This document shows, one piece after another, positions 7,283 through 20,902 of a stretch of 24,000 bases of DNA. Every line of letters starts with the position of its first letter. Within the stretch, counting starts at the first letter, position 1. The notes under the pieces were generated by a model, which worked only from the letters and a program-made list of their open reading frames with translations, made no database searches and was not told where the DNA came from. This DNA is from Nitratidesulfovibrio vulgaris str. Hildenborough (GTDB lineage Bacteria; Desulfobacterota; Desulfovibrionia; Desulfovibrionales; Desulfovibrionaceae). Position numbers and translations under genes: made by a program. Location of the stretch: positions 2,659,175-2,683,174 of the forward strand of contig NC_002937.3 in the NCBI RefSeq assembly GCF_000195755.1, read 5' to 3'.

Positions 7283-8738
7283 TGCTATTGCCTCCCTTGT
7301 GCGTCGTACCGTTGGCGCGGCGCATCATGCTGAACCTGCTCCAGTCCTTGGTCAGGAAAAGCCAGAACATGGTCGAAGACTGAAAGACCTGCGAGACGAG
7401 CATGGCGATGAAGACCCCCGCCGCGTCGCGCCAGACCACATGCCCCATGAACCACGCGCATGGAAGGCGCACGAACCATGTGGCCGAACTGTAGACGATG
7501 AAGTTGTAGAACGTGGCCCCCGCCCCGGTCATGATGCCCCCGAGGGTCATGCTGGCGACGGTGAAGGGAATGGATACGAGGTTGTAGCGCAGATAGCTCA
7601 CCGTCTGCGCGGCCACGGCCGCATCGGGAGTGAGGATGGCGGAGAGTTCGGGCACCCACGGCCAGAGCAGGGCCGCCAGCACGGTCATGCTGCCGCACCC
7701 TATCACCAGCAGGCGCAACCCGACACGGCGCGCGTCATCGCGCAGCCCCGCTCCCAGCAGATGCCCCACGAGAATGGAGGCCGTCATGTTGAAGGCGAAG
7801 GCCGGAAGAAAGATCAGCGACTCCACGCGCATGCCCGCCGTCAGCCCCGCCAGCGCATTCACGCTGTCCGCCGGGGCGGGCAGCGACCCCGTGATGGCGA
7901 AGAGCACCAGATAGCCCATGTGCCACAGCACCTGCATGGCAGCTGCGGGTGCCGCCACCTTCACGAGGTAGGGGGCGCCGCACCGTATCCAGCGCCAGGG
8001 CGGCATCGAAACACCCTGCACCATGCCGCCGCGCCGCAGAAGCACCACATTGAGCGCAGCCCCTGCCAGCACCGACCAGAACGTCCCCCACGCGACCCCG
8101 GCATAACCGAAGTCCGGCAGCCCCCACAGGCCAAGGCCGAAACCGGCACTGGCGACGGCGTTGACGACGCTGACCACGACCATGGTCAGCAACGGGGCGA
8201 TGACATCCTTGCGCGCCCTGAAGGCGGCGTTGCTGATGGTGAAAAGATAGTGGGCGGGCAGCGTCAGCAGGTAGACATGCCAGAAATAGGAGGCCACGGG
8301 CATTATGCGTTCCGGCACCATGAGCACATGCAGCAGCGCGTCGGCAGCCACAAGGCCCGAGGCCGCCACGACGCCGCCGCACAGCGCGCCGCCCCAGAGG
8401 ATGAGCGAGACGTAACGCCGGGCCCGGGCCAGCAGGCCCGCGCCAAGGGCCTGCCCCACTGCGGCGACGGCCCCGTTGGAGAGGGCCACCGCCACCACCA
8501 GCAGGAAGAACATGCACTGGTTGACGATGCCGAGAGAGGCCTGCACATCGGGGTTGATGCGCCCCGCCACCCATACGTCGGTGAAGCCGATGATGAACTG
8601 GAAGAGCATCATGAGCATCTGGGGCCATGTGAGCCGCCAGATGCCCCTGAAGGAGGCGTCGCCCGCCGCTATGGATGATGTGACCGTCACGCCTGTGCCT
8701 TCCGCCGATGGTGCACGACTGTGTCTTGCAAGCGTCAC
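7269..8738 (-). CDS. MATE-family efflux transporter
   Basis: Very hydrophobic multi-TM protein. The N-terminal WRLTWPQMLMMLFQFIIGFTDVWVAGR pattern is typical of NorM/MATE. The start is uncertain: GTG at 8738 has no SD, while an in-frame GTG at 8690 has GGAAGG 7 nt upstream. Confidence 0.8.
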   Translation of the reverse strand: MTLARHSRAPSAEGTGVTVTSSIAAGDASFRGIWRLTWPQMLMMLFQFIIGFTDVWVAGRINPDVQASLGIVNQCMFFLLVVAVALSNGAVAAVGQALGAGLLARARRYVSLILWGGALCGGVVAASGLVAADALLHVLMVPERIMPVASYFWHVYLLTLPAHYLFTISNAAFRARKDVIAPLLTMVVVSVVNAVASAGFGLGLWGLPDFGYAGVAWGTFWSVLAGAALNVVLLRRGGMVQGVSMPPWRWIRCGAPYLVKVAAPAAAMQVLWHMGYLVLFAITGSLPAPADSVNALAGLTAGMRVESLIFLPAFAFNMTASILVGHLLGAGLRDDARRVGLRLLVIGCGSMTVLAALLWPWVPELSAILTPDAAVAAQTVSYLRYNLVSIPFTVASMTLGGIMTGAGATFYNFIVYSSATWFVRLPCAWFMGHVVWRDAAGVFIAMLVSQVFQSSTMFWLFLTKDWSRFSMMRRANGTTHKGGNSNVRD

Positions 8739-8836
8739 ACGGTAGCCGTACCATGACCGTGTCGCTGTCCGCTTCAGGGTCTCTGCTTGAAGCCCCGAAG
8801 CGCATCCGCCGTCAACCCCGTCATCAGGAGGTTGTC

Positions 8837-9205
8837 ATGTCGCACTTCAAAGAAACCCCGCAGACCCCCGCGCTCACTCTCGACATCGGTGCCGCACGCC
8901 GCGAACGCCTTGACCGCATCCTTGACACGGCACGCGAACTCGGTCGCCGCGTACAGCCCGAAGAGCACCTGTTGCGTGCGCTCGACGCATGGCTGGACGA
9001 CACCGGAAAGCAGCTTGAGAGGCTGCGCCGCGAGCGCGAACGCCTCGCGGCCGCCACCGGAGACCCCATTGTCATGGGCCCCGCGCCTTCTTCTGACGAA
9101 GCAGGGCGTCCCCCATGCCAAGCTGCCCGCGACACGCAGTGCCATCCGGGTGGACAGGGCACCGCCATCGACCTGCGCCCTGACAGATATCCCCGTCCGG
9201 CCTGA
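8837..9205 (+). CDS. Hypothetical protein (122 aa)
   Basis: An ATG at 8837 has AGGAGG 6 nt upstream. Third positions are GC-rich and it is followed by a hairpin. No motif recognised. Confidence 0.5.
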   Translation: MSHFKETPQTPALTLDIGAARRERLDRILDTARELGRRVQPEEHLLRALDAWLDDTGKQLERLRRERERLAAATGDPIVMGPAPSSDEAGRPPCQAARDTQCHPGGQGTAIDLRPDRYPRPA

Positions 9206-9208
9206 AAC

Positions 9209-9229
9209 AGGGGGCTGCAGAAGCCCCCT
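9209..9229 (+). terminator. GC-rich hairpin after the hypothetical gene (possible terminator, no U-tract)
   Basis: aGGGGGCT-gcaga-AGCCCCCt: an 8-bp stem and 5-nt loop, beginning 4 nt after the TGA at 9203-9205. Confidence 0.35.
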
Positions 9230-9356
9230 CGGACCCGGTGCCCGTGCGTGCTCGACTCATGAGGCCGAGGATACGTGCATGACGCACATCGTATGGCGCC
9301 ATGTTCTCCCGCAGCCCTGCGGAACGCATGGCTGACGCGTACGCCAGCGCCTGTCC

Positions 9357-9392
9357 GGCAGCATACATGGCAGCATACCCGGCAGCACACCC
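9357..9392. repeat. 12-bp tandem repeat x3 (ggcagcatacat / ggcagcataccc / ggcagcacaccc)
   Basis: Read directly in the convergent intergenic region upstream of the birA stop. Confidence 0.6.
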
Positions 9393-9492
9393 GGCTACTC
9401 GTCCGGTATCATGCGGGGCATCATAAGGACTCTCACGGGACGCGATGCGCGCAAGGCTTACGGGGCATCACGCGTCGGACAAAGATAGGCCG

Positions 9493-10485
9493 TCAGACCC
9501 GGCTGTCAATGACGTCTCCCGCATGCAGCCTGTGCAGCGTACCGTTTCCGGCCAGAATGCACAGCCAGCCTTCAGGGGTCATGTCCGCCACGCGCCCTTC
9601 GACAAGTTCATCGCCGTGGCGCACTCGCAGATGCCGGCCCACGATATCCGAAAGTTCCTTCCAGCGTGTGATGACGGCCCCGGTGTCTCCCTCGCGCAGT
9701 GCACCGTACCAGTGTTCGGCACGTTCCAGAAAGGCGCGGGCGACATCAGCCCTTGCGACAGGTCGGCCGCACTCCGTCTGCAGCGACGTGGCGGCGACGC
9801 CCGCATCGACGAGGGCTTCCGCCGGGGTACTCACATTCACCCCCACGCCGGTGACGACCCAGTCCACCATGTCGGCGACGAGTCCCACCTCGGTGAGGTT
9901 GCCACAGACCTTGAGCCCCGCCATGAGCAGGTCGTTGGGCCATTTGACCTCCGGCATGAGGCCCGTCACGGCCTCGACAGCCTCTGCGGCGGCGACCGCC
10001 GTCATGAGGGTCACCAGCGGGGCCGCCTGCGGAGAAAGGCGGGGACGCAGCACCAGCGACACATACACGCCACCCTGCGGCGAGACCCATGGTCTGCCCG
10101 TACGCCCTCGCCCTGCCAGCTGCTGTGCGGCCATCACGACAGTGCCTTCGCAGGCACCGCCTACGGCAAGCGCCACGGCATCGCGATTGGTCGAGTCGGT
10201 GCTCTCGTGCCAGTGCAGACCGACCTTGCCGAACACCTCTGTGGCAAGTCCGCGCAGTACCTCTGCCGCCTCGAAGGGGGCTGTGGTCCTGTCCAGCCTG
10301 TAGCCGCGCCGCGTCACCGCCTCGATGACATAGCCCGCCGCACGCAACGCCCTGACATGCTTGCCCACGGCAGCGCGACTGACCCCGAGTTCCCTTGAAA
10401 GCTCCTCGCCGGAGCACCATCCATCGGCCTCGAACAAGCGTTCGAGTACTCGACGACGGGTCCCGTTTCTGCCCCTGTCGTCCAT
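9493..10485 (-). CDS. birA: Bifunctional biotin-[acetyl-CoA-carboxylase] ligase / bio operon repressor
   Basis: Start chosen at the internal ATG 10485 (MDDRGRNGTRRRVLERL). An N-terminal winged HTH is present (SGEELSRELGVSRAAVGKHVRALRAAGYVIE). The biotin-binding loop is GRGRTGRPWVSPQGG. The tracked ORF runs 146 codons further upstream, across the bioB promoter region. Confidence 0.9.
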   Translation of the reverse strand: MDDRGRNGTRRRVLERLFEADGWCSGEELSRELGVSRAAVGKHVRALRAAGYVIEAVTRRGYRLDRTTAPFEAAEVLRGLATEVFGKVGLHWHESTDSTNRDAVALAVGGACEGTVVMAAQQLAGRGRTGRPWVSPQGGVYVSLVLRPRLSPQAAPLVTLMTAVAAAEAVEAVTGLMPEVKWPNDLLMAGLKVCGNLTEVGLVADMVDWVVTGVGVNVSTPAEALVDAGVAATSLQTECGRPVARADVARAFLERAEHWYGALREGDTGAVITRWKELSDIVGRHLRVRHGDELVEGRVADMTPEGWLCILAGNGTLHRLHAGDVIDSRV

Positions 10486-10490
10486 GATAA

Positions 10491-10523
10491 TTGTAAACCC
10501 TCTAGAGCGTCTCTCGTTGACAG
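10491..10523. promoter_or_regulatory. BirA-operator-like inverted repeat TTGTAAACC-N15-cGTTGACAg
   Basis: The left half-site matches the known BirA half-site TTGTAAACC exactly. The right half matches 6 of 9 positions of GGTTTACAA, with a 15-nt spacer. It lies 6 nt upstream of the birA start and about 45 nt upstream of the bioB ATG. Confidence 0.6.
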
Positions 10524-10567
10524 TAAGAGAAGGCACGGTTAGTCGCTCGCGATACGCGAGGTACACC

Positions 10568-11653
10568 ATGCACAACCTGCTCGAAAACCTGCGCCGCCGC
10601 CTTCTGGCGCAGCGCACCCCGGAACCGCTCCCCCCGACATCGCAGGGTCTTGCACGACCGTCCCATGACGTCGTCCGTGGGCCTTGCGATGCCGACATCC
10701 CCCCGGATGCCCGAAACACGATGCCCGAAGGCATCACCGTCGAAGAAGCGCTTGCCGTGGCAGAACTTCCGCAGAAGCACGCCCTCGACATCCTCGCCAC
10801 CGCACAGGCGATTCGTTCAGTCCACAAGGGCGGCCCCGCCGCGCTGTGCGGTATCGTCAACGCCAAGTCGGGCCGCTGCCCGGAAGACTGCGCCTTCTGC
10901 GCACAGTCCTCGCACCATGCCACGGGCAGTCCCGTGCATGCCCTTCTCGACGCGGAGACCCTTCTCCGTCGTGCAGAAGAGCTACGCCAATCCGGAGCCG
11001 AGCGCTATGGTATTGTGACGAGCGGCACGCGCCTGACCGTCCGTGAACTCGCCACGTTGTGCGAGGCGGCGGTGCGCATCCGACGCGAAACAGGCATCGC
11101 CCTGTGCGGTTCTCTGGGGCAGTTGACGCCTGACGCGGCCGCCTGCCTGAAAGAGGCGGGTTTTTCCAGCTACCACCATAACCTTGAGACTTCTAGAAGT
11201 TTCTTCCCGGCCATCTGTTCCACACACGCCTACGACGACGACATCGCCACCGTGCGTGCCGCACGGGCTGCCGGGCTGCGCACATGTAGCGGCGGCATCT
11301 TCGGCATGGGCGAGACCGACGCCCAGCGCATCGAACTCTCGGCCACGTTACGCGAACTCGACGTGGATTCCATCCCCGTCAACCTGCTGTCGCCCATTCC
11401 GGGAACCCCGCTGCAACACCGCCCCACCATGCCACCCATGCGCGCCCTTGTGAGCATCGCCATCTACAGACTCATGCACCCGGCGCGTGACATCCTCGTG
11501 TGCGGCGGCCGCGAGGCGACCCTCGGCCCGTGGCAGTCGTGGATATTCCTTGCCGGGGCCAACGGCATGATGGTGGGCAACTATCTTACAACCACGGGAC
11601 GGGATATGGCGGACGACCTTGCCATGCTCGCCACCCTCGGAGTCCGCGCATGA
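10568..11653 (+). CDS. bioB: Biotin synthase (radical SAM)
   Basis: CPEDCAFCAQSS is the radical-SAM CxxxCxxC motif. SYHHNLETS, RTCSGGIFGMGET, IPVNLLSPIPGTPL and CGGRE align with E. coli BioB. The ATG at 10568 has GAGG 6 nt upstream. An alternative ATG at 10721 would give an E. coli-like N-terminus but has no SD. Confidence 0.85.
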   Translation: MHNLLENLRRRLLAQRTPEPLPPTSQGLARPSHDVVRGPCDADIPPDARNTMPEGITVEEALAVAELPQKHALDILATAQAIRSVHKGGPAALCGIVNAKSGRCPEDCAFCAQSSHHATGSPVHALLDAETLLRRAEELRQSGAERYGIVTSGTRLTVRELATLCEAAVRIRRETGIALCGSLGQLTPDAAACLKEAGFSSYHHNLETSRSFFPAICSTHAYDDDIATVRAARAAGLRTCSGGIFGMGETDAQRIELSATLRELDVDSIPVNLLSPIPGTPLQHRPTMPPMRALVSIAIYRLMHPARDILVCGGREATLGPWQSWIFLAGANGMMVGNYLTTTGRDMADDLAMLATLGVRA

Positions 11654-13278
11654 GCACTTCTCCCTTCAACAGCCGTGTCGCGCCTATGCCGCATGATGAT
11701 GCTACCGCGCCCGTTTTGCATTACGCGCATGACGCTGCTGGTGCGCATGACGCTGCTGACGCTGCTGGTGCGCATGACGCTGCTGACGCTGCTGGCACGC
11801 CACCCTGTGCCGCCTCCCGCACAGCCCGCCTCCGCAGCCTCGACGCAGCCCATGTATGGCACCCCTTCACCCAGATGCGCGACTGGATGGGCAGTGAACC
11901 GTGCATCATCGACGCTGCCGACGGCAACCATCTCATCGACACCGACGGCAACCGCTATCTCGACGGCGTCTCGTCGCTGTGGACCAACGTCCATGGTCAC
12001 CGCCATCCGCACATCGACGAGGCCATACGACGGCAACTCGACCGCGTGGCCCACTCCACACTCCTCGGCCTTGGCGGTACGCCCTCCATCGAACTTGCGG
12101 CACGTCTCACCGCCATCGCCCCGGCAGGGCTCACACGCGTGTTCTATTCCGACAGCGGTTCCACCGCCGTGGAAGCGGCCCTCAAGATTGCCTTCCAGTA
12201 CCATCGGCAGGCCCCGGAGGGCGATGCACGCCGCACCCGCGTGATGGCCTTCAGCAACGCCTACCACGGCGACACCATCGGTTCCGTCTCGCTAGGGGGT
12301 ATGTCGCTCTTCCACGGCATCTACGGGCCGTTGCTCTTCGACCCCGTGCGCGCCCCCGCCCCGCACTGCTACCGCTGCCCTGCGGACCTCAGGCCGGAGA
12401 CATGCGGCATGGCGTGCCTCGGCGAGGTCGAACGCCTCATGCGGCACCACGGGCACGAACTGTGCGCCGTGGTCGTGGAACCACTGGTGCAGGGCGCGGC
12501 GGGGATGCTGGTGCAGCCCCGCGGCTGGTTGCGCGGGCTGCGCGACCTCTGCGACCGCCATGGCGTCTTCATGGTGGCAGACGAGGTCGCCGTGGGCTTC
12601 GGCAAGACGGGCACCATGTTCGCCTGCGAACAGGAGGGCGTCGTGCCCGACATGCTCTGCCTCGCCAAGGGCATCACCGGGGGCTATCTGCCACTGGCGG
12701 CGACCCTCGTCACGGAACACATCCACGATGGCTTTCTGGGGGGCTACGCCGACTTCCGTACCTTCTTCCACGGACACACCTACACGGGCAACGCCCTCGC
12801 CTGCGCCGCGGCCCTCGCCTCGCTCGACGTCTTCGAAGAGGAACGCACGCTGGAGACCCTGCGTCCGCGCATCGAACGACTGGCGACACTGCTGGCCCCG
12901 CTGAACGACCTGCCCCATGTGGGCGACATACGCCGCGTTGGCGTGATGACCGGCATTGAACTGGTCGCCGACCGCGAGACCCGCACCCCCTATCGCCCCG
13001 AAGAACGCATCGGCCATCGCGTGACCCTCGAGGCGAGACGGCGTGGCGTCATCGTAAGGCCGCTGGGGGACGTGATGGTGCTCATGCCCCCCCTCTCCAT
13101 CACGGAGACGGAGTTGGAGACACTGGTGCATACCGTACGCGGCGCCATCATCGCCGTCACCGAACACGGGGCGGACGGGGGATTGTGGACGAAGCGCCCT
13201 GACGGCCCGGACAACCCGGACAAGGCCAACACGCCGGACACACCGGACGGGGCTCGCACCGGGGAGACCGTGGTGTGA
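11650..13278 (+). CDS. bioA: Adenosylmethionine-8-amino-7-oxononanoate aminotransferase, with N- and C-terminal low-complexity extensions
   Basis: The ATG overlaps the bioB TGA (ATGA at 11650-11653). Motifs: HVWHPFTQM, SDSGSTAVEAALKIA, DEVAVGFGKTG, and LCLAKGITGG carrying the PLP lysine. At 542 aa it is longer than E. coli BioA (429 aa, recalled from memory). Confidence 0.9.
   Translation: MSTSPFNSRVAPMPHDDATAPVLHYAHDAAGAHDAADAAGAHDAADAAGTPPCAASRTARLRSLDAAHVWHPFTQMRDWMGSEPCIIDAADGNHLIDTDGNRYLDGVSSLWTNVHGHRHPHIDEAIRRQLDRVAHSTLLGLGGTPSIELAARLTAIAPAGLTRVFYSDSGSTAVEAALKIAFQYHRQAPEGDARRTRVMAFSNAYHGDTIGSVSLGGMSLFHGIYGPLLFDPVRAPAPHCYRCPADLRPETCGMACLGEVERLMRHHGHELCAVVVEPLVQGAAGMLVQPRGWLRGLRDLCDRHGVFMVADEVAVGFGKTGTMFACEQEGVVPDMLCLAKGITGGYLPLAATLVTEHIHDGFLGGYADFRTFFHGHTYTGNALACAAALASLDVFEEERTLETLRPRIERLATLLAPLNDLPHVGDIRRVGVMTGIELVADRETRTPYRPEERIGHRVTLEARRRGVIVRPLGDVMVLMPPLSITETELETLVHTVRGAIIAVTEHGADGGLWTKRPDGPDNPDKANTPDTPDGARTGETVV
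11725..11796 (+). repeat. In-frame tandem repeat inside bioA (18-bp partial unit plus 2 x 27 bp)
   Basis: gcgcatgacgctgctggt, then gcgcatgacgctgctgacgctgctggt, then gcgcatgacgctgctgacgctgctggc. These encode AHDAAG-AHDAADAAG-AHDAADAAG. Confidence 0.9.
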
Positions 13279-13661
13279 AGACCGTCCACGAAGGAACGTT
13301 CCTCTTTCCCGCCACCCATCCGCTCTTCGCAGACCACTTCGAAGGTGCGCCCGTGGTGCCCGGTTCGTTGCTGCTTCGCGCCTTCGTGGAGGAAGCGGGC
13401 ACCGTATGGCCCGACTTTGCGACGCAGGGCGCCACGGGCTTTCGTTTCCGGCGGTTCGTGACGCCGGGTCGTCACCCGTTTCGCATGGAACGTACCGACC
13501 TCACTGTGCGCTGTACACTCATGGACGCTCAGGGGGGCATACTGGTGCGAGGCGATCTGACGACGGCAGACGCGACGGGCGATGCCGGAACGGATAACGA
13601 CAGAACGGGCGCTGACGGAGAGGCGGCCCTGCATACCTCGCCAAGAGGAACAACGGCATGA
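13275..13661 (+). CDS. Truncated FabZ-like hot-dog protein (His motif present, catalytic Glu position is Arg)
   Basis: The GTG start overlaps the bioA TGA (GTGA at 13275-13278). [23 protein letters not shown] aligns residue-for-residue with E. coli FabZ [34 protein letters not shown] aligns with EARFKRPVVPG. It lacks the N-terminal ~40 aa of FabZ and has a D/G/T-rich tail. Confidence 0.65.
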   Translation: [128 protein letters not shown]

Positions 13662-14686
13662 CTCTGCACCAGAAGGATGGTGACGACTACGCGGGGGGCA
13701 CGCGACGCCCCACCGCCGTCGCTCACGCGCAGCATGACATCGCCCCCGGAGTGGTGCTCATCCTCGGCGGTTCCAGCACGCTGGGGCTTGCCGCAGGTCG
13801 TGCGCTACTTGCCGCGGGACATCCCGTGGCCCTGACAACCCGCAATGCCGAAGGAACAGGGCGCATCCTTGCCGCCCTCGCCCCCGGTGAAGCGGGCATA
13901 CCCGACGGCGGCACTGACTTCTCCGGCAACAGGCCTGACCTCTTCAGCAACAGGCCTGACCTGTCCAACGGCGGGGCAGACAGGTGCCGTGTCTGTAGAC
14001 ATACGGGACACGCACCGTATGCCGTGCTGCCCGTCGAGAGTGCCGAATCATTACCCGACCGGTGCGCGGACGCACTGGGGACCCCGCCCCGCCACATGCT
14101 GGACTTCATGCATGGCCGCTTCGAGACGCTGGTCGCTGCCGCCCACGTCCACGACATCGACCGGTGGGCCATCGACGACATCGCCCTGCGGGCCCGATGC
14201 CTTCGCGCCGTCAGTCGGGCGATGCTGGCGGAGAGGGCCGGACGTTGTGTCTTCGTCTCCTCGACGGCAGCAGCCATGGCAGCGCACGGGCAGGGCTACT
14301 ATGCCGCAGCCAAGGCAGCGGGCGAGGCCCTGTACCGCAGTGCGGGTCTTGAACTGGCATCACGCGGGGTGACCACCTGTTCGTTGCGCCTCGGGTGGGT
14401 GGATGCGGGGCGCGGGGCGGACTTCATACGGGGCAATGACGCGCCCTACCGAGACGGGACTGCCCACGCCGTGCCCACCCCACACACCGCCACACAGCTT
14501 GCCGATGGCGTCCCCACCGGGCGTCTCGTCACCGTGGACGAGGTCGTGGGCACGCTCATGTTCCTCCTCTCCGGGGCGGCGACATCGCTCAACGCCACCC
14601 ATATCACCCTCGACGGCGGCTTCACCGCCGGAAAGCCCCGCGCCGGAACGCCGCGCACAGGTTCAGGAACACGGCGCACGGGCTGA
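13658..14686 (+). CDS. Short-chain dehydrogenase/reductase, FabG-like (3-oxoacyl-ACP reductase candidate) with a large insertion
   Basis: The ATG overlaps the upstream TGA (ATGA), with AGAGGAA upstream. Rossmann motif ILGGSSTLGLAAG. Catalytic pattern VSSTAA...GYYAAAKAA (S, YxxxK). The C-terminus GRLVTVDEVVGTLMFLLSGAATSLNATHITLDGGF is typical of FabG-type SDRs. Confidence 0.8.
   Translation: MTLHQKDGDDYAGGTRRPTAVAHAQHDIAPGVVLILGGSSTLGLAAGRALLAAGHPVALTTRNAEGTGRILAALAPGEAGIPDGGTDFSGNRPDLFSNRPDLSNGGADRCRVCRHTGHAPYAVLPVESAESLPDRCADALGTPPRHMLDFMHGRFETLVAAAHVHDIDRWAIDDIALRARCLRAVSRAMLAERAGRCVFVSSTAAAMAAHGQGYYAAAKAAGEALYRSAGLELASRGVTTCSLRLGWVDAGRGADFIRGNDAPYRDGTAHAVPTPHTATQLADGVPTGRLVTVDEVVGTLMFLLSGAATSLNATHITLDGGFTAGKPRAGTPRTGSGTRRTG
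13926..13967 (+). repeat. In-frame 21-bp tandem repeat x2 inside the SDR gene
   Basis: gcaacaggcctgacctcttca / gcaacaggcctgacctgtcca, encoding (G)NRPDLFS / NRPDLSN inside the SDR insertion. Confidence 0.9.
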
Positions 14687-14785
14687 TGGCATCCCGAAAG
14701 CCGCCCTCCGCAGCACACACCGCAACAGACCGTCCAGACACCACGAACCATCAACAGTGGGCGGACGCCCACCCACGAGAAGCCC

Positions 14786-15193
14786 ATGCCAGAGACACCA
14801 GCATTCGACACGGTACGCGCCATCGTCGCCGACATCTTCGAGGTGGCACCCGAAACCCTCACGCCCGCGACCCGTCTCTTCGAAGACCTGCCCTGCGAGT
14901 CCATCGACCTTCTGGAAATCGGCGCGGGTCTCAACCGCCGCTGCCGCATCCCCGTGGATGACGACGCGGCCTTCCTGCGTTCACTTCGCATCCACCTCAT
15001 GGAGGCCGAGAGAGAGAGACGCGATGCGACACAGCACCTTGCCAGCGTCTACCCGCACCTCACAGCACGGCGGGTGGCATCCATCGTCGAGGCACTGCGC
15101 GCCCCCGCATCACCGCCTGTGCTCACGCTGGCTGACATCACCGCCTACGTCGACCACGTACGCAACGACGTGCAGCGCACCGGAGAGGTTTGA
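14786..15193 (+). CDS. Atypical acyl carrier protein (PP-binding domain with ~50-aa insertion)
   Basis: VRAIVADIFEVAPETLTPATRLFEDLPCESIDLLEIGAGLNRRCRIPVDDDAA aligns with E. coli ACP [53 protein letters not shown]. The Ser of CES aligns with Ser36. The SD is weak (GAGAAG). There is a 99-nt gap from the SDR stop. Confidence 0.7.
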   Translation: MPETPAFDTVRAIVADIFEVAPETLTPATRLFEDLPCESIDLLEIGAGLNRRCRIPVDDDAAFLRSLRIHLMEAERERRDATQHLASVYPHLTARRVASIVEALRAPASPPVLTLADITAYVDHVRNDVQRTGEV

Positions 15194-15470
15194 CCGGCAT
15201 GGACGGGGAAAGAGACAGGGGACAAGGGGGGCATGGACACCAGGCCCCGTCACTCCTGTCCTCTCACCGACGTGCGGGCGGCACCCCGCAGTCAAGGGAC
15301 AGGGCGGCCCCCCGGACTGGCACACAGACTGACGTGCCCACCGGCACCCCGACTGGCCCCTGCACTGCACTGACGGGCGCACAGACACCGCCTTGCGAAG
15401 TAGCCCGACAACCATCAGCACCCCGCCTGCACTCCATCTGTGGGCCCTATCCACCTGACATCGCATCGCC

Positions 15471-16919
15471 ATGAACGACTCCGCACATCACCAACGCACG
15501 CAAGACGCCACGGGCAACCGCATGCGCGTCGTCATCTCCGGCATGGACTGCGTCACGCCCTTGGGCGACGACGCCAGCCTTGCCGCCCACCTACACCACG
15601 GCACCCCGCCCTTCATGCCCGCCCCGGTGCTGCCGGGGGCCGCATGGTGCCCTGTGAACGCCTTCGACCCGGCACAGGCGACAGACCACTGGCGACACCG
15701 CCGCTATCTCTCGCGGGGCGGTCTCTTCGCGCTGGCTTCGGCCCTCGGCGCAGCACGCGATGCTGGATGGGGGGCATCGGCCCCCGACGGGGCGGCGCTG
15801 GTCACCGCGCATGGTCCCAACCTCGACATCACCTCGGACTTTCCGCACTGCCATTGCGACGTCTCCGGGACTGGCGACACACAAGGCGATGCGCCCTCTC
15901 CCTGCGCGACCTCGACGCATGGAGGCCCCACCGCCGCGCACGGCGTCAATGGCATGAATGGCGTGGATGGCCCAGATGAGGCGCGACATGGCCTCTCCCG
16001 CGATACGGCAGGACTCGACCACCCCGGACTTGATGCCCTGTGGCTGCTGCGCTGGCTGCCCAACACCGCCGCCTCGGCCATCGCGCAGCGCCTCGGCATC
16101 CATGGTGAAGGGCTGGTCGTAGGCACGGCCTGCGCCGCAGGCTTGCAGGCACTGGGAGAGGCATACCGCCGCGTGCGGCACGGTCTCGCCCCCACGGTGC
16201 TGGCTGCGGGCGGCGACTCCCGCCTCTCTGCGGGGGGGATGCTGGGCTACGCACGGGCCGACGCCCTGTGGCACTCCAACGCGCGCCCGGCCTCCCATGC
16301 CGAGGCCCTGCGTGCCATGCGGCCCTTCGACGCCGCGCATGGCGGCTTCGTCCCCGGTGAAGGCGGTGCGGCCTTCGTACTGGAGACGGAAGCCGCTGCA
16401 TGTGCGCGGGGGGCTACAATCCACGGCGAGATTCTCGGATTCGGCGCGACACTGGACGGTGCCAGCCTCACGGCCCCCGATGCCACGGCGCATCACGCCG
16501 AATGCGCCGTGCGCAAGGCCCTCGATGACGCAGGGTTCACCCCCGGCGACATCGCATGGGTGGCAGCGCACGGCACCTCGACACCGCGCGGAGACGCCGC
16601 CGAAGCCCTGCTTCTGCAACGCGTCTTCACCGACGCGGGGCACCGCCCCGCCGTCACCGCCCTCAAGTCATGGACAGGTCACCTCGCCTCCGCCTGCGGA
16701 CTCGCCGAATGCGCGCTGATGCTGCGGGCCGCCCGGTGCGGCGTGCTGCCGTCCATCCGCAATCTCGACACCCCATGTTCCCCGGCAGCGGAAGGACTCG
16801 ACCTCGTGCGCGAACCACGTCCCTTCCCGCAAGGGCCGGGACTCATCCAGAGTTTCGGCTTCGGGGGGCAGAATGCCGCGCTCATCGTCATGCCTGCCGT
16901 AACAAGGGCGGGCCAGTGA
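15471..16919 (+). CDS. Beta-ketoacyl-ACP synthase, KAS I/II (FabF/FabB) type, Cys-His-His triad
   Basis: VVGTACAAGLQALGEA carries the active Cys. AAHGTSTPRGDAAE and LKSWTGHLASACGLAE carry the two His. Also PFDAAHGGFVPGEGGAAFVLE and a C-terminal SFGFGGQNAALIV. There is a ~68-aa insertion at residues ~121-188. The start could instead be ATG 15522 (MRVVISGMDCVTPLG). Neither start has a clear SD. Confidence 0.85.
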   Translation: MNDSAHHQRTQDATGNRMRVVISGMDCVTPLGDDASLAAHLHHGTPPFMPAPVLPGAAWCPVNAFDPAQATDHWRHRRYLSRGGLFALASALGAARDAGWGASAPDGAALVTAHGPNLDITSDFPHCHCDVSGTGDTQGDAPSPCATSTHGGPTAAHGVNGMNGVDGPDEARHGLSRDTAGLDHPGLDALWLLRWLPNTAASAIAQRLGIHGEGLVVGTACAAGLQALGEAYRRVRHGLAPTVLAAGGDSRLSAGGMLGYARADALWHSNARPASHAEALRAMRPFDAAHGGFVPGEGGAAFVLETEAAACARGATIHGEILGFGATLDGASLTAPDATAHHAECAVRKALDDAGFTPGDIAWVAAHGTSTPRGDAAEALLLQRVFTDAGHRPAVTALKSWTGHLASACGLAECALMLRAARCGVLPSIRNLDTPCSPAAEGLDLVREPRPFPQGPGLIQSFGFGGQNAALIVMPAVTRAGQ

Positions 16920-17512
16920 TGCCGCGTCACGCCATGCCGACAGCACACGACGCCATCTTCACGGACGGCACACAGAGGGCCTCGCACACGTCCCCTTGCC
17001 CCCCGCATCTCCCCGGTGAAGCACTCCCCGACGACACGCCCCCCGGTTTCGTGCTTCTGGACGCCATCACGCGCTACGACACCTCGGGGTTGACCGCAGT
17101 GCGCCAGTACAGCCGCACCCCGGCATGGCACGCGGTGGAAGCCATGGCACAAGCCGGGGCCATGCATCTGCGGTTTCTGGGCGACTTCTCAGACCATGCC
17201 TTCCTGCTTGGCATCACCGACTGCCCTTGGCCCGAGACGCCGCTTGACGGCTGCTGCCGTATCGAAGTGCGCCTCACAGCCCTCACACAGGGGGCGGCAT
17301 CCTACGACATGACCCTTTCCCTCGATGGCCCTGATGAGGTGACCACAAAGCAACAGACGGTGGGGCGTACTGTAGAGCACGCGGTACGGTGGGTGGGGCA
17401 GGGTGCGATGCTCTTCGGTCGCGTCCCCTACGACAACATATACCGCGAGGCCGTCCTCGCGCCACGCTACCGGAGACTCTTCGCATGGCTCACCCGTTCC
17501 TGCACCGCCTGA
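16919..17512 (+). CDS. Second hot-dog-fold protein, FabZ/FabA-like, retaining EAMAQ but lacking the His-containing segment
   Basis: The ATG at 16919 overlaps the KAS TGA (TGATG). [22 protein letters not shown] resembles FabZ [36 protein letters not shown] matches FabZ LILEAMAQATGIL. The [14 protein letters not shown] block is absent. The N-terminal ~45 aa are low complexity. Confidence 0.5.
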   Translation: [197 protein letters not shown]

Positions 17513-18759
17513 CCCTGCGCCTCGACGCGCAACGCGCTGCGGGTCTCGACCGCACTGTCATGACACCGGAGACGCGTACGACTCGCCACGTCATCCTCGA
17601 CGGTCAGCGACTCTGCAACTTCGCCTCCAACGACTATCTCGGCCTTGCCGATGATGCGGCATGGCGTGCCGAGGTCGCCGACTGCTTCGCCCGCCACCCT
17701 GCTTCGGGCACGGCATCACGCCTTGCCGCCGGACATTCCGCGCTGGTGGCCGAAGCCGAAGCTGCATGGGCCGAACATTTCGGATATGAGAGTTGCCTCT
17801 TCCTGCCCAGCGGCTATCAGGCCAACCTCGCCGTGGTGACGGGGCTGCTGCACACGGGCGACACCCTCTTCATCGACAGGCGTATCCACGCCAGCATGGC
17901 GCGGGCAGTGCCCCTGTGTGGGGCACACCCGGTCACCTATCCCCACGGCGACCTCGCCCGACTCGACCGCAGGCTGACCGCGTGGAGACACGAAACAACC
18001 GCGGAGACGGCATCAGCCGCACCTCTCACAGAGGGGGCGCCCCTGTCGTCCCCGCCCGCGACATGTCCGACGGCATCCCCGCCGCCGCACGGGGACGCCA
18101 GCCCCGTCATACTCACCGAATCCCTCTTCAGCATGGACGGCACAGTGACCTCCATGGACGCCCTCGCCACCCTGCGGTCACGACACGGGGCCTTCGTCAT
18201 CCTTGACGAGGCCCATGCCTGCGGTGCCTTGGGGCAAGGCGGGCGCGGCCTTGCATGGGGACAAACGGAGAATGCCCCCGCCGCCGACGTCATCGTGGGC
18301 ACGCTGGGCAAGGGACCGGGATTCTTCGGTGCGTTCGTGCTCATGCCGCGCATCGTGCGCGAGTCGCTTGAGAACTTCGCCTCTGCCGTCATGCACTCCA
18401 CGGCCCTGCCTGAAGCCCACGCCGCTGCCGTGTTGCGTCTGCTGCCCCGCATGGCGGGCATGGACGACGCACGCGCACGCCTCGCCCGCAACGCCCGCGC
18501 ACTGCGCGAGGGGCTGGCCGGTTGCGGCCTGCCAGTGCATGGCGACGCCCATATCCTGTGCATTGAGACAGGTGACGAGGCACAGGCAACGCAACTGGCC
18601 CGAAGACTTCGTACCCAAGGGGTGCTGGCCCTCTCTGCGCGACACCCCACCGTCCCCCACGGGCACGCCATCGTGCGCTTCAGCGTCACCGCCGCCCATA
18701 CCGACGACGACATCACGTATTGCAAGGAGACCGTTCACACATGTCTGCACACGAGATGA
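17485..18759 (+). CDS. bioF: 8-amino-7-oxononanoate synthase
   Basis: The ATG at 17485 has GGAG 9 nt upstream and overlaps the upstream gene by 28 nt. Motifs: NFASNDYLGL, SGYQANLAV, ESLFSMDG, DEAHACG, and GTLGKGPG carrying the PLP lysine. There is an A/P/S/T-rich insertion at about residues 167-206. Confidence 0.9.
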   Translation: MAHPFLHRLTLRLDAQRAAGLDRTVMTPETRTTRHVILDGQRLCNFASNDYLGLADDAAWRAEVADCFARHPASGTASRLAAGHSALVAEAEAAWAEHFGYESCLFLPSGYQANLAVVTGLLHTGDTLFIDRRIHASMARAVPLCGAHPVTYPHGDLARLDRRLTAWRHETTAETASAAPLTEGAPLSSPPATCPTASPPPHGDASPVILTESLFSMDGTVTSMDALATLRSRHGAFVILDEAHACGALGQGGRGLAWGQTENAPAADVIVGTLGKGPGFFGAFVLMPRIVRESLENFASAVMHSTALPEAHAAAVLRLLPRMAGMDDARARLARNARALREGLAGCGLPVHGDAHILCIETGDEAQATQLARRLRTQGVLALSARHPTVPHGHAIVRFSVTAAHTDDDITYCKETVHTCLHTR

Positions 18760-19481
18760 ACCACGCGACACCACGTCTGCCTGCGCCCCTCTTCGTCACC
18801 GGTACGGATACGGGGGTGGGCAAGACGGTGGTGAGTCTGTTGCTGATGAGGGCGCTGTTCAGACGGGGGATGGTCCCCTTCTACGCCAAGCCCATGCAGA
18901 CGGGCTGCCGCGACCCGTATGACACGGACAGCGACGCAGCCTTCGTCTACCGGCATGTGCCGGAATTGGCGGAAAGGGATCCTGCGGAAGCGGTGGGATG
19001 GTGCTTCAGGGCACCCAAGGCTCCGCTCCACGCCGCGCGGGACGAACGCAACGGCGTGGAGACGGAAGACCTGATGCGCAGGTTGGCAATCCTGCGCGCT
19101 ACACATGCCTGCCTCGTTCTGGAGGGTGCGGGCGGGCTCATGGTGCCCTTCACCGCCGACGCGCTGTGCGTCGACTGCATCCGGGCGGCGGATGCGCGCC
19201 CCGTGCTTGTGGCGCGGGACGGTCTGGGAACCGTGAACCACACCCTCCTTTCCGTGGAGGCGATGACCCGAAGAGGCGTGACGCCGGCAGGGATCGTTTT
19301 CGTTGCATCCGGAAAACGCCCCACCCCTTCGGACCTTGTCCACGACAACATGGAAGCGGTGGCCATGCTGTCAGGGATATCCGTGAGCGGCATCGTGCCG
19401 CCCATCCTTGATTTTCATGCGCCGCCCGAAGCTGCGCTGACCGTTGCCGACGCCGTCATCGACGCGGCACTCGGCCTGTAG
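18741..19481 (+). CDS. bioD: Dethiobiotin synthetase
   Basis: FVTGTDTGVGKTVVS is the P-loop, nearly identical to E. coli FVTGTDTEVGKTVAS. The ATG at 18741 has AAGGAG 11 nt upstream. An alternative ATG at 18756 forms an ATGA overlap with the bioF stop. Confidence 0.9.
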   Translation: MSAHEMNHATPRLPAPLFVTGTDTGVGKTVVSLLLMRALFRRGMVPFYAKPMQTGCRDPYDTDSDAAFVYRHVPELAERDPAEAVGWCFRAPKAPLHAARDERNGVETEDLMRRLAILRATHACLVLEGAGGLMVPFTADALCVDCIRAADARPVLVARDGLGTVNHTLLSVEAMTRRGVTPAGIVFVASGKRPTPSDLVHDNMEAVAMLSGISVSGIVPPILDFHAPPEAALTVADAVIDAALGL

Positions 19482-19521
19482 TCACCCATACCCCGCGTGG
19501 CTACGGCATGGGCCGGAAGGC

Positions 19522-19560
19522 CGCCCCCGCCCCGCGGCAGGAGAATGCGGTGCGGGGGCG
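19522..19560. terminator. Strong GC hairpin between convergent bioD and lysA (candidate bidirectional terminator)
   Basis: CGCCCCCGC (19522-19530) pairs with GCGGGGGCG (19552-19560). An inner CCGC/GCGG extension is present. A second inverted repeat, CTCCGGG...CCCGGAG, lies at 19563-19591. There is no clear U-tract. Confidence 0.45.
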
Positions 19561-19636
19561 CACTCCGGGCAGACGGGGTGCACTCCCGGAGCACCCGCGC
19601 CTTTCCGGAGAAACGTCGACGTATACGTGACGGGGG

Positions 19637-20902
19637 CTAGAGCCCCAGCCCCTCGTACATGGCCACAAGGTCGTCCAGCGTCTCGCGGCGCCGCACGAGG
19701 CGAGGCCTGCCCTCGAGGTCGATGAGCACCTCGGCGGGGCGCATCCGCTGGTTGTAGGAGGAACTCATGACATAACCGTAGGCACCGGCGTCGAGAACAC
19801 CGAGGATGTCACCCTCCTCCACCGGAGGCAGGGGCCTGTTCCTGGCGATGATGTCGCCGCTTTCGCAGATGTTGCCCACAACGGTCTGCGGCAGCAGCAG
19901 GTCCGAGGGGGCTCCGTCTTCACGGTACACCTCGATGTCGTGGTGCGCGTCGTACATGACGGGACGCGCCAGCACGTTGAAGCCGAGGTCGGTACCCACG
20001 TAGCGGTTGGCACCGTTGGACTTCACCGAATGCACCGAACCGAGAAGCAGGCCGCATTCGGCCACCACGTAGCGCCCCGGTTCGACGAGGAACCGCCCGC
20101 GATAGCCGCGCCGCTGCGCCCAGCCGGAGATGAGGTCGTCGAACTGCGCCCCCATGGCGGTGAGGTCGAGACGGGGCTGGTTGTCGTACTTGTGATAGGG
20201 GATGCCGAAGCCGCCGCCGAAGTCGATGACCTCGACGTCGTCGAAGCGTTCCGCCAGCGTGAGCAGAAAACGCGCAGCCTCGACATAGCTTTCCGGTTCG
20301 AGGAAGAGCGAGCCGATGTGCTGGTTGATGCCCGCCAGCGTGAGATTGTGCCGTGCGAGGATGGTACGCACCTCATCGATGGATGCGGGGTCGACGCCGA
20401 ACTTCGTCTCCTTGCCCGCCGTGACCACCTTCTTGTGGTGGCCCGCCCCGATGCCGGGGTTGAAGCGCACCATCACGCGCCCGCCGGGGTTCACCTCGCC
20501 GTAGAGGTCAAGCTGCGAGAGCGAATCGACGCTCACCAGCAGGCCATGCGACACGGCATTGCCCAGTTCTTCGGCGGAGACGTTGTTGCACACGTAGAGA
20601 ATCTTGTCGGGGGAGAAGCCCGCCCGAAGGTTCATGAACAGTTCGCCGGGCGACATGGCGTCGACCACCAGCCCTTCCTCGCGGATGATGTGGAGCAGCG
20701 CGAGGTTGCTGTTGGCCTTGGCGGAATAGTTCACGCGGAAGCCGGGATGCGACGAGAGGGCCTTCATCTCGCGGCAACGCTGGCGGAGGATGGCCTCGCT
20801 GTAGACATAGAGCGGACTGCCATAGGTCTCGACCAGTTCGGTGGGCGAGGTGAGTCCGAAGAAGCCGACGGCGTCGGTGTAGGTGGATCGTACGTTGGGC
20901 AT
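19637..20902 (-). CDS. lysA: Diaminopimelate decarboxylase (Orn/DAP/Arg decarboxylase fold-III PLP family)
   Basis: Start at the internal ATG 20902 (MPNVRSTYTD), overlapping the upstream stop as TGATG. Motifs: YSAKANSNLALL (PLP lysine), GGGFGIPY, EPGRYVVAECG, and CESGD. Confidence 0.85.
   Translation of the reverse strand: MPNVRSTYTDAVGFFGLTSPTELVETYGSPLYVYSEAILRQRCREMKALSSHPGFRVNYSAKANSNLALLHIIREEGLVVDAMSPGELFMNLRAGFSPDKILYVCNNVSAEELGNAVSHGLLVSVDSLSQLDLYGEVNPGGRVMVRFNPGIGAGHHKKVVTAGKETKFGVDPASIDEVRTILARHNLTLAGINQHIGSLFLEPESYVEAARFLLTLAERFDDVEVIDFGGGFGIPYHKYDNQPRLDLTAMGAQFDDLISGWAQRRGYRGRFLVEPGRYVVAECGLLLGSVHSVKSNGANRYVGTDLGFNVLARPVMYDAHHDIEVYREDGAPSDLLLPQTVVGNICESGDIIARNRPLPPVEEGDILGVLDAGAYGYVMSSSYNQRMRPAEVLIDLEGRPRLVRRRETLDDLVAMYEGLGL

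Follow-up and report, generated by a model that had tools for sequence, protein, structure and literature searches.

A probable dedicated type II mini-FAS for pimeloyl-ACP in the BirA-repressed biotin operon of the Desulfovibrio type

INTRODUCTION

The E. coli BioC/BioH route produces pimeloyl-ACP for BioF from a malonyl thioester in two FAS-type rounds, using a methyl-ester disguise and the housekeeping FabB/F, FabG, FabZ, FabI and AcpP. Alphaproteobacterial BioZ, a KAS III-type enzyme (CHN, FabH-type) primed by glutaryl-CoA, is a dedicated condensing enzyme that handles a free omega-carboxylate, and the reductions are performed by the housekeeping FAS. In the aryl-polyene type II PKS, two small hot-dog proteins of one FAS-like cluster, ApeI and ApeP (PDB 6qsr), form a dehydratase that is described as a heterodimer sharing one active site (PMC8041823).

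For Desulfovibrio, Rodionov et al. proposed in 2004 that five genes constitute a pimeloyl-thioester route, on the basis of regulation and position (PMC545781). In an RB-TnSeq study of D. vulgaris Hildenborough, the nine genes DVU2558:DVU2565, which include both hot-dog genes (here called G1 and G5), the SDR, the ACP and the KAS, were specifically important in the absence of biotin (Trotter et al. 2023, PMC10102598). The unlinked nitroreductase-like gene DVU1220 was likewise needed for growth without biotin, and bioC and bioH were not found in the genome (PMC10102598). All other pimelate routes are also reported missing from these genomes (PMC10102598, PMC545781).

Here we analysed a locus of this type in a 24-kb stretch of DNA (the window). 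An earlier note on this stretch had proposed a 'candidate undescribed pimeloyl-thioester pathway'. The function that it assigned is favoured by synteny over 40 loci, by the BirA operator and by published mutant fitness. The word 'undescribed' has to be withdrawn: the pathway has been in print since 2004 (PMC545781), a proposal that the note itself had correctly cited, with genetic support since 2021/2023 (PMC10102598), and the enoyl-reductase candidate, the nitroreductase-like DVU1220, is already part of this support. No biochemical study of the Desulfovibrio-type module was found in the literature searched, so the note's remark that it knew of none appears to hold. The pathway is already known, in the species where it was described, and what is new here are residue-level hypotheses on it, not its discovery.

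RESULTS

Organization of the operon

Over 17 kb, the window was 99.47% identical at the nucleotide level to an N. vulgaris genome, which identifies the locus as DVU2557-DVU2565. It is the same locus as DVU2558-DVU2565 of D. vulgaris Hildenborough, with the same gene order, BirA operator and neighbours (lysA, a TrmB-type regulator and MatE). Differences from the compared N. vulgaris genome were at the strain level only and concentrated at the KAS 3' end, G5 and bioF; protein identity was 100% for G1 and the SDR, 99% for the ACP and the KAS, and 94% for G5. The features are the following.

9493-10485, minus strand: birA, biotin-protein ligase/repressor, divergent from the bio operon (Pfam HTH_11 and BPL_LplA_LipB)
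10491-10522, unstranded: BirA operator, TTGTAAACC-N15-CGTTGACAG, in the birA/bioB intergenic region
10568-11653, plus strand: bioB, biotin synthase (TIGR00433, 374.8 bits, cut-off 225; 361-aa call on contig L001)
11650-13278, plus strand: bioA, KAPA aminotransferase (TIGR00508, 534 bits, cut-off 405)
13275-13661, plus strand: G1, small ApeI/FabZ-like hot-dog protein, DVU2560 orthologue (128 aa)
13658-14686, plus strand: SDR ketoreductase, DVU2561 orthologue (342 aa)
14786-15193, plus strand: dedicated ACP, DVU2562 orthologue (135 aa)
15194-15470, unstranded: non-coding gap between ACP and KAS (277 nt)
15471-16919, plus strand: KAS I/II-type condensing enzyme, DVU2563 orthologue (482 aa)
16919-17512, plus strand: G5, the other hot-dog protein, orthologue of DORF42491, an unannotated D. 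vulgaris Hildenborough gene (197 aa)
17485-18759, plus strand: bioF, 8-amino-7-oxononanoate synthase (TIGR00858 best match, 288 bits, in two stretches)
about 18741-19481, plus strand: bioD, dethiobiotin synthase (TIGR00347, 133 bits, cut-off 83; calls on contigs L001 and L002)

The birA gene call and its Pfam domains were taken from the identical contig L001, and its start codon lies at 10483-10485 (CAT when read on the plus strand). The BirA operator motif had one match within the window against 0 expected (100 shuffles), and its half-sites are the same as those of the D. vulgaris bioB site (Table 1 of PMC545781). The gene bioA carries an N-terminal extension rich in repeats; its start is uncertain and lies at 11650 or later (467-aa call on L001). 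The 288 bits of bioF fall below the cut-off of 426 because an insert splits the match. For bioD, the start is either 18741 or 18756, and the overlap with bioF holds with both.

On the plus strand the order is bioB, bioA, G1, SDR, ACP, KAS, G5, bioF and bioD. The earlier note had derived a hot-dog/SDR/ACP/KAS/hot-dog module between bioA and bioF from open reading frames, and all five frames were found where it had placed them. The overlaps that it listed could be read directly from the sequence: bioB/bioA (ATGA, 11650-11653), bioA/G1 (GTGA, 13275-13278), G1/SDR (ATGA, 13658-13661), KAS/G5 (TGATG, 16917-16921), G5/bioF (28 nt) and bioF/bioD. Only two junctions lack an overlap, SDR-ACP (99 nt) and ACP-KAS (277 nt). 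An open reading frame at 14686-14961 was rejected as the ACP gene; it is spurious, and the gene lies at 14786-15193. The overlaps within bioB-bioA-G1-SDR and KAS-G5-bioF-bioD fit a single, translationally coupled transcription unit.

The known pimelate systems of which the earlier note had seen no sign in the window are indeed lacking there: none of the called genes of the 24 kb is a BioC, BioH(G/K/J), BioW, BioI or BioZ, and no methyltransferase, alpha/beta-hydrolase, AMP-ligase, P450 or KAS III domain was found among them. The same holds for its list of functions that the module does without, as we observed no enoyl reductase, acyltransferase, methyltransferase, esterase or PPTase among the called genes.

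Synteny of the cassette

The order G1-SDR-ACP-[nitroreductase-like]-KAS-G5-bioF was fixed across 40 loci from divergent lineages (32-73% protein identity), and in all 40 the cassette occurred only between bio genes. G5 stood between KAS and bioF in every locus, and G1 was present in all those whose contig extends far enough upstream. Carriers of the module include sulfate reducers, syntrophs and Bilophila wadsworthia, a pathobiont of the gut. Among the 34 loci not of the Desulfovibrionaceae type, ACP and KAS are separated by a nitroreductase-like gene in all 30 whose contig reaches that place. At the corresponding position of the window, the 277-nt gap had no in-frame open reading frame bridging it, no Rfam match and no remnant of nitroreductase-like genes by tblastn.

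Sequence features of the module proteins

When the five proteins were searched against profile HMMs, the domains expected by the earlier note were recovered for the KAS (N- and C-terminal ketoacyl-synt domains), the ACP (PP-binding, 25 bits) and the SDR (adh_short, 60 bits, only aa 180-323 matched). The FabA match of G1 was marginal (23.3 bits), and G5 had no match in Pfam or NCBIfam. Both G1 and G5 scored far below the FabZ cut-offs.

The best NCBIfam match of the KAS was fabF at 228.4 bits, which is under the cut-off of 493.75 and covers only aa 195-473. It was correctly described earlier as a CHH-type condensing enzyme: alignments to PDB chains and a position table gave C221, H367 and H404, as well as K399 and F464, and the C/H/H/K/F set was present in 31 of 31 unique homologues (Lys335 and Phe400 in the E. 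coli FabF reference). In the same 31 homologues, D-S-R251 stands where E. coli FabF has E-K-A193, the last being a residue that we take to line the acyl pocket. Other changes relative to E. coli FabF are F133 to W, S136 to R/K, F202 to Y and A204 to K/R, and a lineage-specific insert is located at about aa 150-190.

The SDR is FabG-like but below every NCBIfam cut-off (65 bits versus 222 for the best FabG model). Its catalytic Ser-Tyr-Lys (S202, Y215 and K219) was conserved in 20/20 homologues, all of which have D-[FLM]-x-[QH] in place of the NNAG motif. The Gly-rich dinucleotide motif is present in a degenerate form, GGS[CS]xx[LM][AG], and an insert of about 45 aa is specific to the lineage. 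R252 lies in the loop that follows the PG motif and is invariant in the family.

Aligned to E. coli AcpP, the ACP has its predicted phosphopantetheine serine at Ser39 in the motif ESID, and this serine is invariant among the homologues compared. The family itself numbers at least 1095 clusters, with proteins of about 123 aa, in a protein database that includes metagenomes. Three extra helices, formed by some 45 inserted residues that are conserved in the family, precede the last helix. The AF2 model (pLDDT 89.1, 8 helical elements) comprises the four-helix ACP core, in which Ser39 stands at the start of helix II, plus these three helices, and its Foldseek matches were ordinary or 'specialized' ACP cores only.

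G1 and G5 as a proposed hot-dog pair

A protein identical to G1 has a precomputed assignment to Pfam ApeI-like, and the G1 family profile matched FabZ (E 4e-7) and the ApeI chain 6qsr_A (E 0.0015). In alignment to E. coli FabZ, G1 keeps the catalytic His as H21, and R35 occupies the position of the Glu. The His was found in 21 of 21 unique homologues; the acid position varied in these (H in 7, Q and D in 3 each, R, E and N in 2 each, G and S in 1 each). A few homologues (Bilophila, L014) carry His and Glu together, and in these a homodimer of G1 might be active.

The hot-dog fold of G5 was seen only through its AF2 model (pLDDT 81.7) and the Foldseek matches of this model to FabZ and ApeI:P. 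Chain 6qsr_B of the ApeI:P heterocomplex ranked third (E 1.2e-5). The family comprises 206 clusters at 50% identity, drawn from 1.84 billion proteins. G5 retains the Glu of the FabZ 'xEAMAQ' motif as E74, conserved in 36/36 homologues, and in profile alignment to FabZ 14 residues with the His motif are missing, so that the His loop is lost. R85 is invariant in the family, and H83 and H93 nearly so. Neither G1 nor G5 combines the FabZ-type His (HxxxxGxxxxP) and Glu (xEAxAQ) in one polypeptide. Each of the two resembles one subunit of the solved ApeI:ApeP heterocomplex, G1 by profile and G5 by fold. The complementary conservation of His and Glu would imply one active site per heterodimer and fits a G1:G5 dehydratase of the ApeI:ApeP kind.

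DISCUSSION

We consider it probable, at roughly 0.7, that the five genes make up the pimeloyl-ACP module of the Desulfovibrio type in a biotin operon repressed by BirA, that is, a dedicated type II mini-FAS with its own enlarged ACP. The gene content, catalytic residues, synteny, operator and complementary His/Glu pattern are observed here; in the following scheme we infer the primer, how many rounds there are, the pairing of G1 with G5, what the arginines do and which enzyme serves as enoyl reductase. Malonyl-ACP(bio) would be produced by host AcpS and FabD. The Cys-His-His KAS would join a dicarboxylic primer with a free omega-carboxylate (malonyl, then glutaryl) to malonyl-ACP, the SDR would reduce the 3-oxo group, and the 3-hydroxy intermediate would be dehydrated by the G1:G5 heterodimer at a composite site of His21 (G1) and Glu74 (G5). 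A flavoprotein from elsewhere, either DVU1220-type nitroreductase-like or a housekeeping enoyl reductase, would reduce the enoyl intermediate. After two rounds, pimeloyl-ACP would be converted to KAPA by BioF, whose gene is translationally coupled to G5, and the methyl-ester disguise of the BioC/BioH style would not be used. KAS R251, SDR R252 and G5 R85 are candidate binders of the free omega-carboxylate, and may hold it and limit the chain length.

It counts against this best explanation that malonyl, when used as the primer by a CHH KAS, would tend to decarboxylate. The awkward first condensation is avoided if the KAS, in a single BioZ-like round, condenses a ready-made C5 primer (glutaryl-CoA or glutaryl-ACP derived from the breakdown of lysine or aromatics) once with malonyl-ACP, and the SDR, G1/G5 and the reductase act on 3-oxopimeloyl-ACP alone. 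The odd-carbon arithmetic fits this as well, the invariant Arg residues would suit a glutaryl omega-carboxylate equally, and BioZ sets a precedent for a biotin-dedicated condensing enzyme. We nevertheless regard a single round as unlikely. The KAS is of the CHH KAS I/II type and not a CHN KAS III with CoA primers; a whole KR/DH/ACP set is kept, plus a dedicated flavoprotein in most lineages, whereas alphaproteobacterial BioZ passes its product to the housekeeping FAS; and none of the 40 loci has a glutaryl-CoA-forming gene linked to the cassette.

Less likely still is a role of G5 as a thioesterase of the hot-dog type, an acyl-transfer protein or a gatekeeper that releases pimeloyl from ACP(bio) or passes it to BioF, with G1 as the sole dehydratase. 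The Foldseek list of G5 does include 4HBT-type thioesterases (PA1618 and Arthrobacter 4HBT) at E-values similar to the other matches, its invariant Glu occupies the N-terminal end of the central helix, a feature of some hot-dog thioesterases, and its gene always adjoins bioF, overlapping it. However, the sequence profile of G5 resembles FabZ and not thioesterases, and G1 mostly lacks a conserved catalytic acid, so that alone it would be inactive. Free pimelate would also call for a ligase of the BioW type, and no gene for one is linked. The heterodimer is favoured by the complementary losses in G1 and G5 and by the precedent of ApeI:ApeP. The RB-TnSeq phenotypes upstream of bioF/bioD could partly be due to polarity, since the operon is tightly coupled, with G5 overlapping bioF. 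That the module only hitch-hikes in the operon, making another acyl product (a lipid or other cofactor precursor), with a biotin phenotype arising from polar transposon insertions, is nonetheless very improbable: in all 40 loci the cassette is confined to bio-gene surroundings, it is under a BirA operator, and all other pimelate routes are reported to be missing. Moreover, the biotin phenotype is shared by DVU1220 (PMC10102598), a member of the family to which the in-cluster nitroreductase-like gene of other lineages belongs. As DVU1220 is unlinked, polarity cannot account for this.

The proposed two-round mini-FAS shares its overall logic with the E. coli BioC/BioH route. Unlike that route, it has no methyltransferase or esterase; it has its own ACP with the three-helix insert, a KAS and KR below the FabF and FabG cut-offs, a putative split dehydratase, and Arg residues that are invariant at positions where small or hydrophobic ones would otherwise stand. 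Compared to ApeI:ApeP, the proposed product is a saturated C7 diacid and not an aryl polyene, the G1 and G5 genes are non-adjacent and bracket SDR-ACP-KAS, G5 has the additional R85, H83 and H93 and lacks a Pfam assignment, and the heterodimer is predicted. In contrast to BioZ, the KAS is of the CHH FabF type and is accompanied by a dedicated KR, DH and ACP.

Taken further, and only tentatively, the module and the flavoprotein of nitroreductase fold found between ACP and KAS in other lineages may jointly be a self-contained mini-FAS for free dicarboxylic chains. Its Arg-lined KAS, KR and DH pockets would hold the omega-carboxylate and so take the place of the BioC/BioH methyl ester, its G1/G5 dehydratase would be split with a single His/Glu site, and its enoyl-ACP reductase would be of a new class, from the nitroreductase superfamily. 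These three features are so far undemonstrated in any biotin pathway.

Within biotin synthesis, bacteria differ most in how they supply the pimelate moiety, and the Desulfovibrio-type route is the one recognised pimelate route without biochemistry behind it. Working out this module would reveal by what means enzymes of the FAS type deal with a free omega-carboxylate that is not disguised as a methyl ester, and a new class of enoyl-ACP reductase might emerge from it.

Layout of the bio operon and its FAS-like module

With a GC content of ∼65%, the window yields noisy mechanical ORF lists. ORF calls combined with domain searches gave a single coherent plus-strand gene series running from bioB to bioD:

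9493–10485, minus strand: birA, divergent from the bio operon
10568–11653, plus strand: bioB
11650–13278, plus strand: bioA
13275–13661, plus strand: G1, hot-dog protein, 128 aa
13658–14686, plus strand: SDR, 342 aa
14786–15193, plus strand: ACP, dedicated carrier protein, 135 aa
15471–16919, plus strand: KAS, 482 aa
16919–17512, plus strand: G5, hot-dog protein, 197 aa
17485–18759, plus strand: bioF
∼18741–19481, plus strand: bioD

The five-gene module that the earlier note had placed between bioA and bioF agrees with the ORFs and the domain calls, the hot-dog nature of G5 being taken from its structure model. The junctions it described are all exact (ATGA at 11650, GTGA at 13275, ATGA at 13658, TGATG at 16917–16921, the 28-nt G5/bioF overlap and the bioF/bioD overlap). 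Two further junctions are uncoupled, with 99 nt lying 5′ of ACP and 277 nt 5′ of KAS. ORFs at 14686–14961 and 15190–15474 were rejected as genes: their translations are Arg/Pro-rich, of low complexity and without homologues, and they are not called on identical contigs.

The four late biotin genes are present, as had been claimed. bioB, bioA and bioD score above their equivalog cut-offs; the bioF model is the top match for its ORF, yet its score stays under the cut-off because of an insert. Four of the module proteins receive Pfam or NCBIfam domain assignments and G5 receives none. Where the models cover only part of a protein, the reason lies in lineage-specific low-complexity inserts, which enlarge the N. 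vulgaris proteins and do not occur in homologues from Bilophila and metagenomes. Inserts or extensions were seen in five operon proteins: BioA (e.g. HDAADAAG twice), SDR (NRPDLFS/NRPDLS), KAS, G5 and BioF. The low-complexity stretches are:

11650–11900: N-terminus of bioA
13930–14060: SDR
15920–16040: KAS
16919–17040 and 17320–17390: G5
18000–18100: bioF

A BirA operator, TTGTAAACC-N15-CGTTGACAG, lies at 10491–10522, where none is expected by chance; Rodionov et al. (PMC545781) list this same site for bioB of D. vulgaris. In keeping with what had been read from the sequence, the 24-kb window holds no lookalike of BioC, a BioH-type esterase, BioW, BioI or BioZ. An enoyl reductase, an acyltransferase and a PPTase, said to be missing from the module, were likewise found nowhere in the window.

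An Rfam scan of 9000–20000 returned just two sub-threshold matches, both in coding sequence and taken as chance. One, to the Guanidine-II riboswitch (17394–17462, minus strand; 26.3 bits, gathering score 32, E 0.057), is antisense inside the G5/bioF coding overlap and most likely fortuitous. Directly downstream of the bio operon and convergent to it are lysA (diaminopimelate decarboxylase; 19637–20902, minus strand) and a TrmB-family regulator (∼20902–21606, minus strand), the LysX-lysA pair treated by Rodionov et al. (PMC545781); a link to pimelate supply is not evident. Further away, a 437-aa ORF (2913–4226, minus strand) with the HD-GYP-like motifs LLHDLGK and HHEKLDGSGYP probably encodes a cyclic-di-GMP phosphodiesterase.

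Genetic evidence for a role in biotin synthesis

The window locus is DVU2557–DVU2565 of Desulfovibrio vulgaris. An RB-TnSeq study by Trotter et al. (PMC10102598; preprint 2021) found nine clustered genes, DVU2558:DVU2565, to be specifically important without biotin, among them DVU2560, DORF42491, DVU2561, DVU2562 and DVU2563, so that both hot-dog genes have biotin phenotypes in D. vulgaris Hildenborough. The unlinked nitroreductase-like gene DVU1220 was likewise specifically important when biotin was withheld (PMC10102598). Other Desulfobacterota and Chrysiogenetes were reported to have related clusters, and some of these include a nitroreductase-like gene (Trotter et al., PMC10102598).

The pimeloyl-thioester pathway proposed in the earlier note therefore stands as to its function, but the word ‘undescribed’ has to be dropped: the pathway is already described and genetically supported, for D. 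vulgaris itself (PMC10102598). The 2004 proposal of Rodionov et al., cited there as assigning such FAS-like genes to pimelate synthesis, was represented accurately (PMC545781). Literature searches turned up no later biochemical work on the pathway, matching the statement that no biochemical characterisation was known. We consider it highly probable (∼0.9) that the module takes part in pimeloyl-thioester supply, most likely as a dedicated mini-FAS.

Related loci share one gene order

An exhaustive HMMER search was needed for relatives of G5, because word-indexed protein searches found few (4, then 38) compared to the 206 that it recovered. These 206 are clusters at 50% identity in 1.84 billion proteins, mostly of 145–160 aa. 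A G5 pattern ([VLI]EA[AML]AQ...) derived from an 11-sequence alignment matched predominantly ordinary FabZ genes and added two loci. Of the 40 loci in the final set, 35 are metagenome contigs, and the other five are the window, N. vulgaris, a related Desulfovibrio-like contig, Bilophila wadsworthia and a Desulfovibrio MAG. G5 lies between KAS and bioF in all 40, and on every contig long enough to show it the gene order reads (bioB)(bioA)-G1-SDR-ACP-[nitroreductase-like]-KAS-G5-bioF-bioD. G5 is a good marker of the system. This comparative anatomy of the loci is new in the present analysis. In the human gut pathobiont Bilophila wadsworthia ATCC 49260 (L007), a compact five-gene module precedes bioF at 7311–11661.

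A nitroreductase-superfamily flavoprotein of ∼215–224 aa has a conserved position between ACP and KAS in the non-Desulfovibrionaceae cassettes. It is encoded in 30 of the 30 loci that reach this position, among 34 loci of non-Desulfovibrionaceae type, and the six Desulfovibrionaceae-type loci lack it (the window, the N. vulgaris reference contig L011, L007, and contigs L013, L008 and L049). Its genes lie, on contigs bearing related loci, at:

3755–4402 of L012
4481–5155 of L014
7466–8140 of L015
6568–7212 of L016
3753–4427 of L017
with counterparts in L020–L047

The nearest PDB relatives of the protein are NfnB, a BluB-like protein and iodotyrosine deiodinase. We regard this flavoprotein as a candidate for the enoyl-ACP reductase of the pathway.

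At the exact site of this gene, the window has a 277-nt non-coding gap (15194–15470) that interrupts the otherwise tightly coupled operon and is identical in sequence in the reference strain. The gap contains no ORF and no Rfam match, and a search for a decayed nitroreductase gene in it and in the rest of the window gave nothing above noise. It might be an internal promoter site or a deletion scar.

The window and L011 are 99.47% identical over 17 kb, with the same neighbours, and the KAS protein occurs verbatim on many public contigs. The differences cluster strongly at 16000–18760, in the 3′ end of KAS, G5 and bioF (69 of the 90 nucleotide differences in 17 kb). G5 differs at 42 positions per kb and its protein is 94% identical, whereas no difference falls in birA, bioB or bioA. 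The pattern resembles a recombination tract or a local relaxation of constraint.

G1 and G5 as a predicted split dehydratase

G1 aligns with FabZ over the catalytic His motif (ADH21FEGAPVVPG) and has Arg35 where FabZ has its catalytic Glu. The G5 family profile shows the complementary pattern: relative to FabZ, a 14-residue deletion takes out the His motif, while xE74AMAQ is kept. The His of G1 is present in 21 of 21 unique sequences; its acid position (H7, Q3, D3, R2, E2, N2, G1, S1) is unconstrained across loci. The Glu of G5 is conserved in 36 of 36, and a conserved His is absent at the FabZ position. In FabZ-type dimers, each active site combines a His from one chain with a Glu from the partner chain; therefore, a G1:G5 heterodimer would have exactly one complete site. 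That the catalytic acid is missing from G1 universally did not hold, as a Glu was found in Bilophila G1 and in one metagenome G1. The Bilophila protein, unlike most G1 proteins, keeps both the FabZ His and Glu.

The predicted one-site heterodimer resembles the ApeI/ApeP dehydratase of aryl-polyene clusters, which is described as a heterodimer having one active site (PMC8041823). G1 is ApeI-like by precomputed Pfam annotation and by a profile match to 6qsr_A (E 0.0015). The AlphaFold2 model of G5 (pLDDT 81.7) is a hot-dog fold; in the PDB it is matched best by FabZ enzymes and by chain B of the ApeI:P heterocomplex (6qsr_B). G1 and G5 together probably form one split dehydratase.

Proposed mechanism and alternatives

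We lean slightly towards malonyl-primed, two-round chemistry. Malonyl would be loaded onto ACP(bio), the carrier protein of the module, by host AcpS and FabD, and KAS would carry out the condensation of malonyl-ACP with a primer whose omega-carboxylate is free. To finish each round, the pathway would use SDR, G1:G5 and an enoyl reductase whose gene lies elsewhere; candidates for this reductase are housekeeping FabI/K and the DVU1220-type flavoprotein. After two rounds starting from malonyl, the product would be pimeloyl-ACP, the substrate for BioF, whose gene overlaps G5. A BioZ-like route, with one round from glutaryl-CoA or glutaryl-ACP, appears unlikely, and it is less likely still that G5 serves as a thioesterase or hand-off protein instead of a dehydratase subunit. 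That the module makes an unrelated product, the published phenotypes reflecting polarity, is very improbable because its bio-operon context is exclusive in 40 loci and the unlinked DVU1220 also shows a biotin phenotype.

Conserved residues of KAS, SDR and ACP

KAS is of the CHH type, as the note had it: Cys221, His367, His404, Lys399 and Phe464 align to FabF C163, H303, H340, K335 and F400, and all five are invariant in 31 unique homologues. An invariant D-S-R of the family replaces E-K-A193 of E. coli FabF, and alignments place Ala at the A193 position also in T. thermophilus and B. subtilis FabF. Ala193 of E. coli FabF is located in the pocket. Further family replacements are F133 to W, S136 to R/K, F202 to Y and A204 to K/R. 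In SDR, Ser202, Tyr215 and Lys219 are kept in 20 of 20 sequences, the NNAG motif is replaced, and Arg252 is invariant in the loop following the PG motif. ACP has an invariant Ser39 and a conserved insert of ∼45 residues modelled as three extra helices (pLDDT 89.1); at 90% identity, its family splits into at least 1095 clusters.

The invariant arginines KAS R251, SDR R252 and G5 R85 are candidates for binding the omega-carboxylate and for setting chain length. As such, they would give residue-level form to the less hydrophobic active sites suggested by Trotter et al. (PMC10102598).
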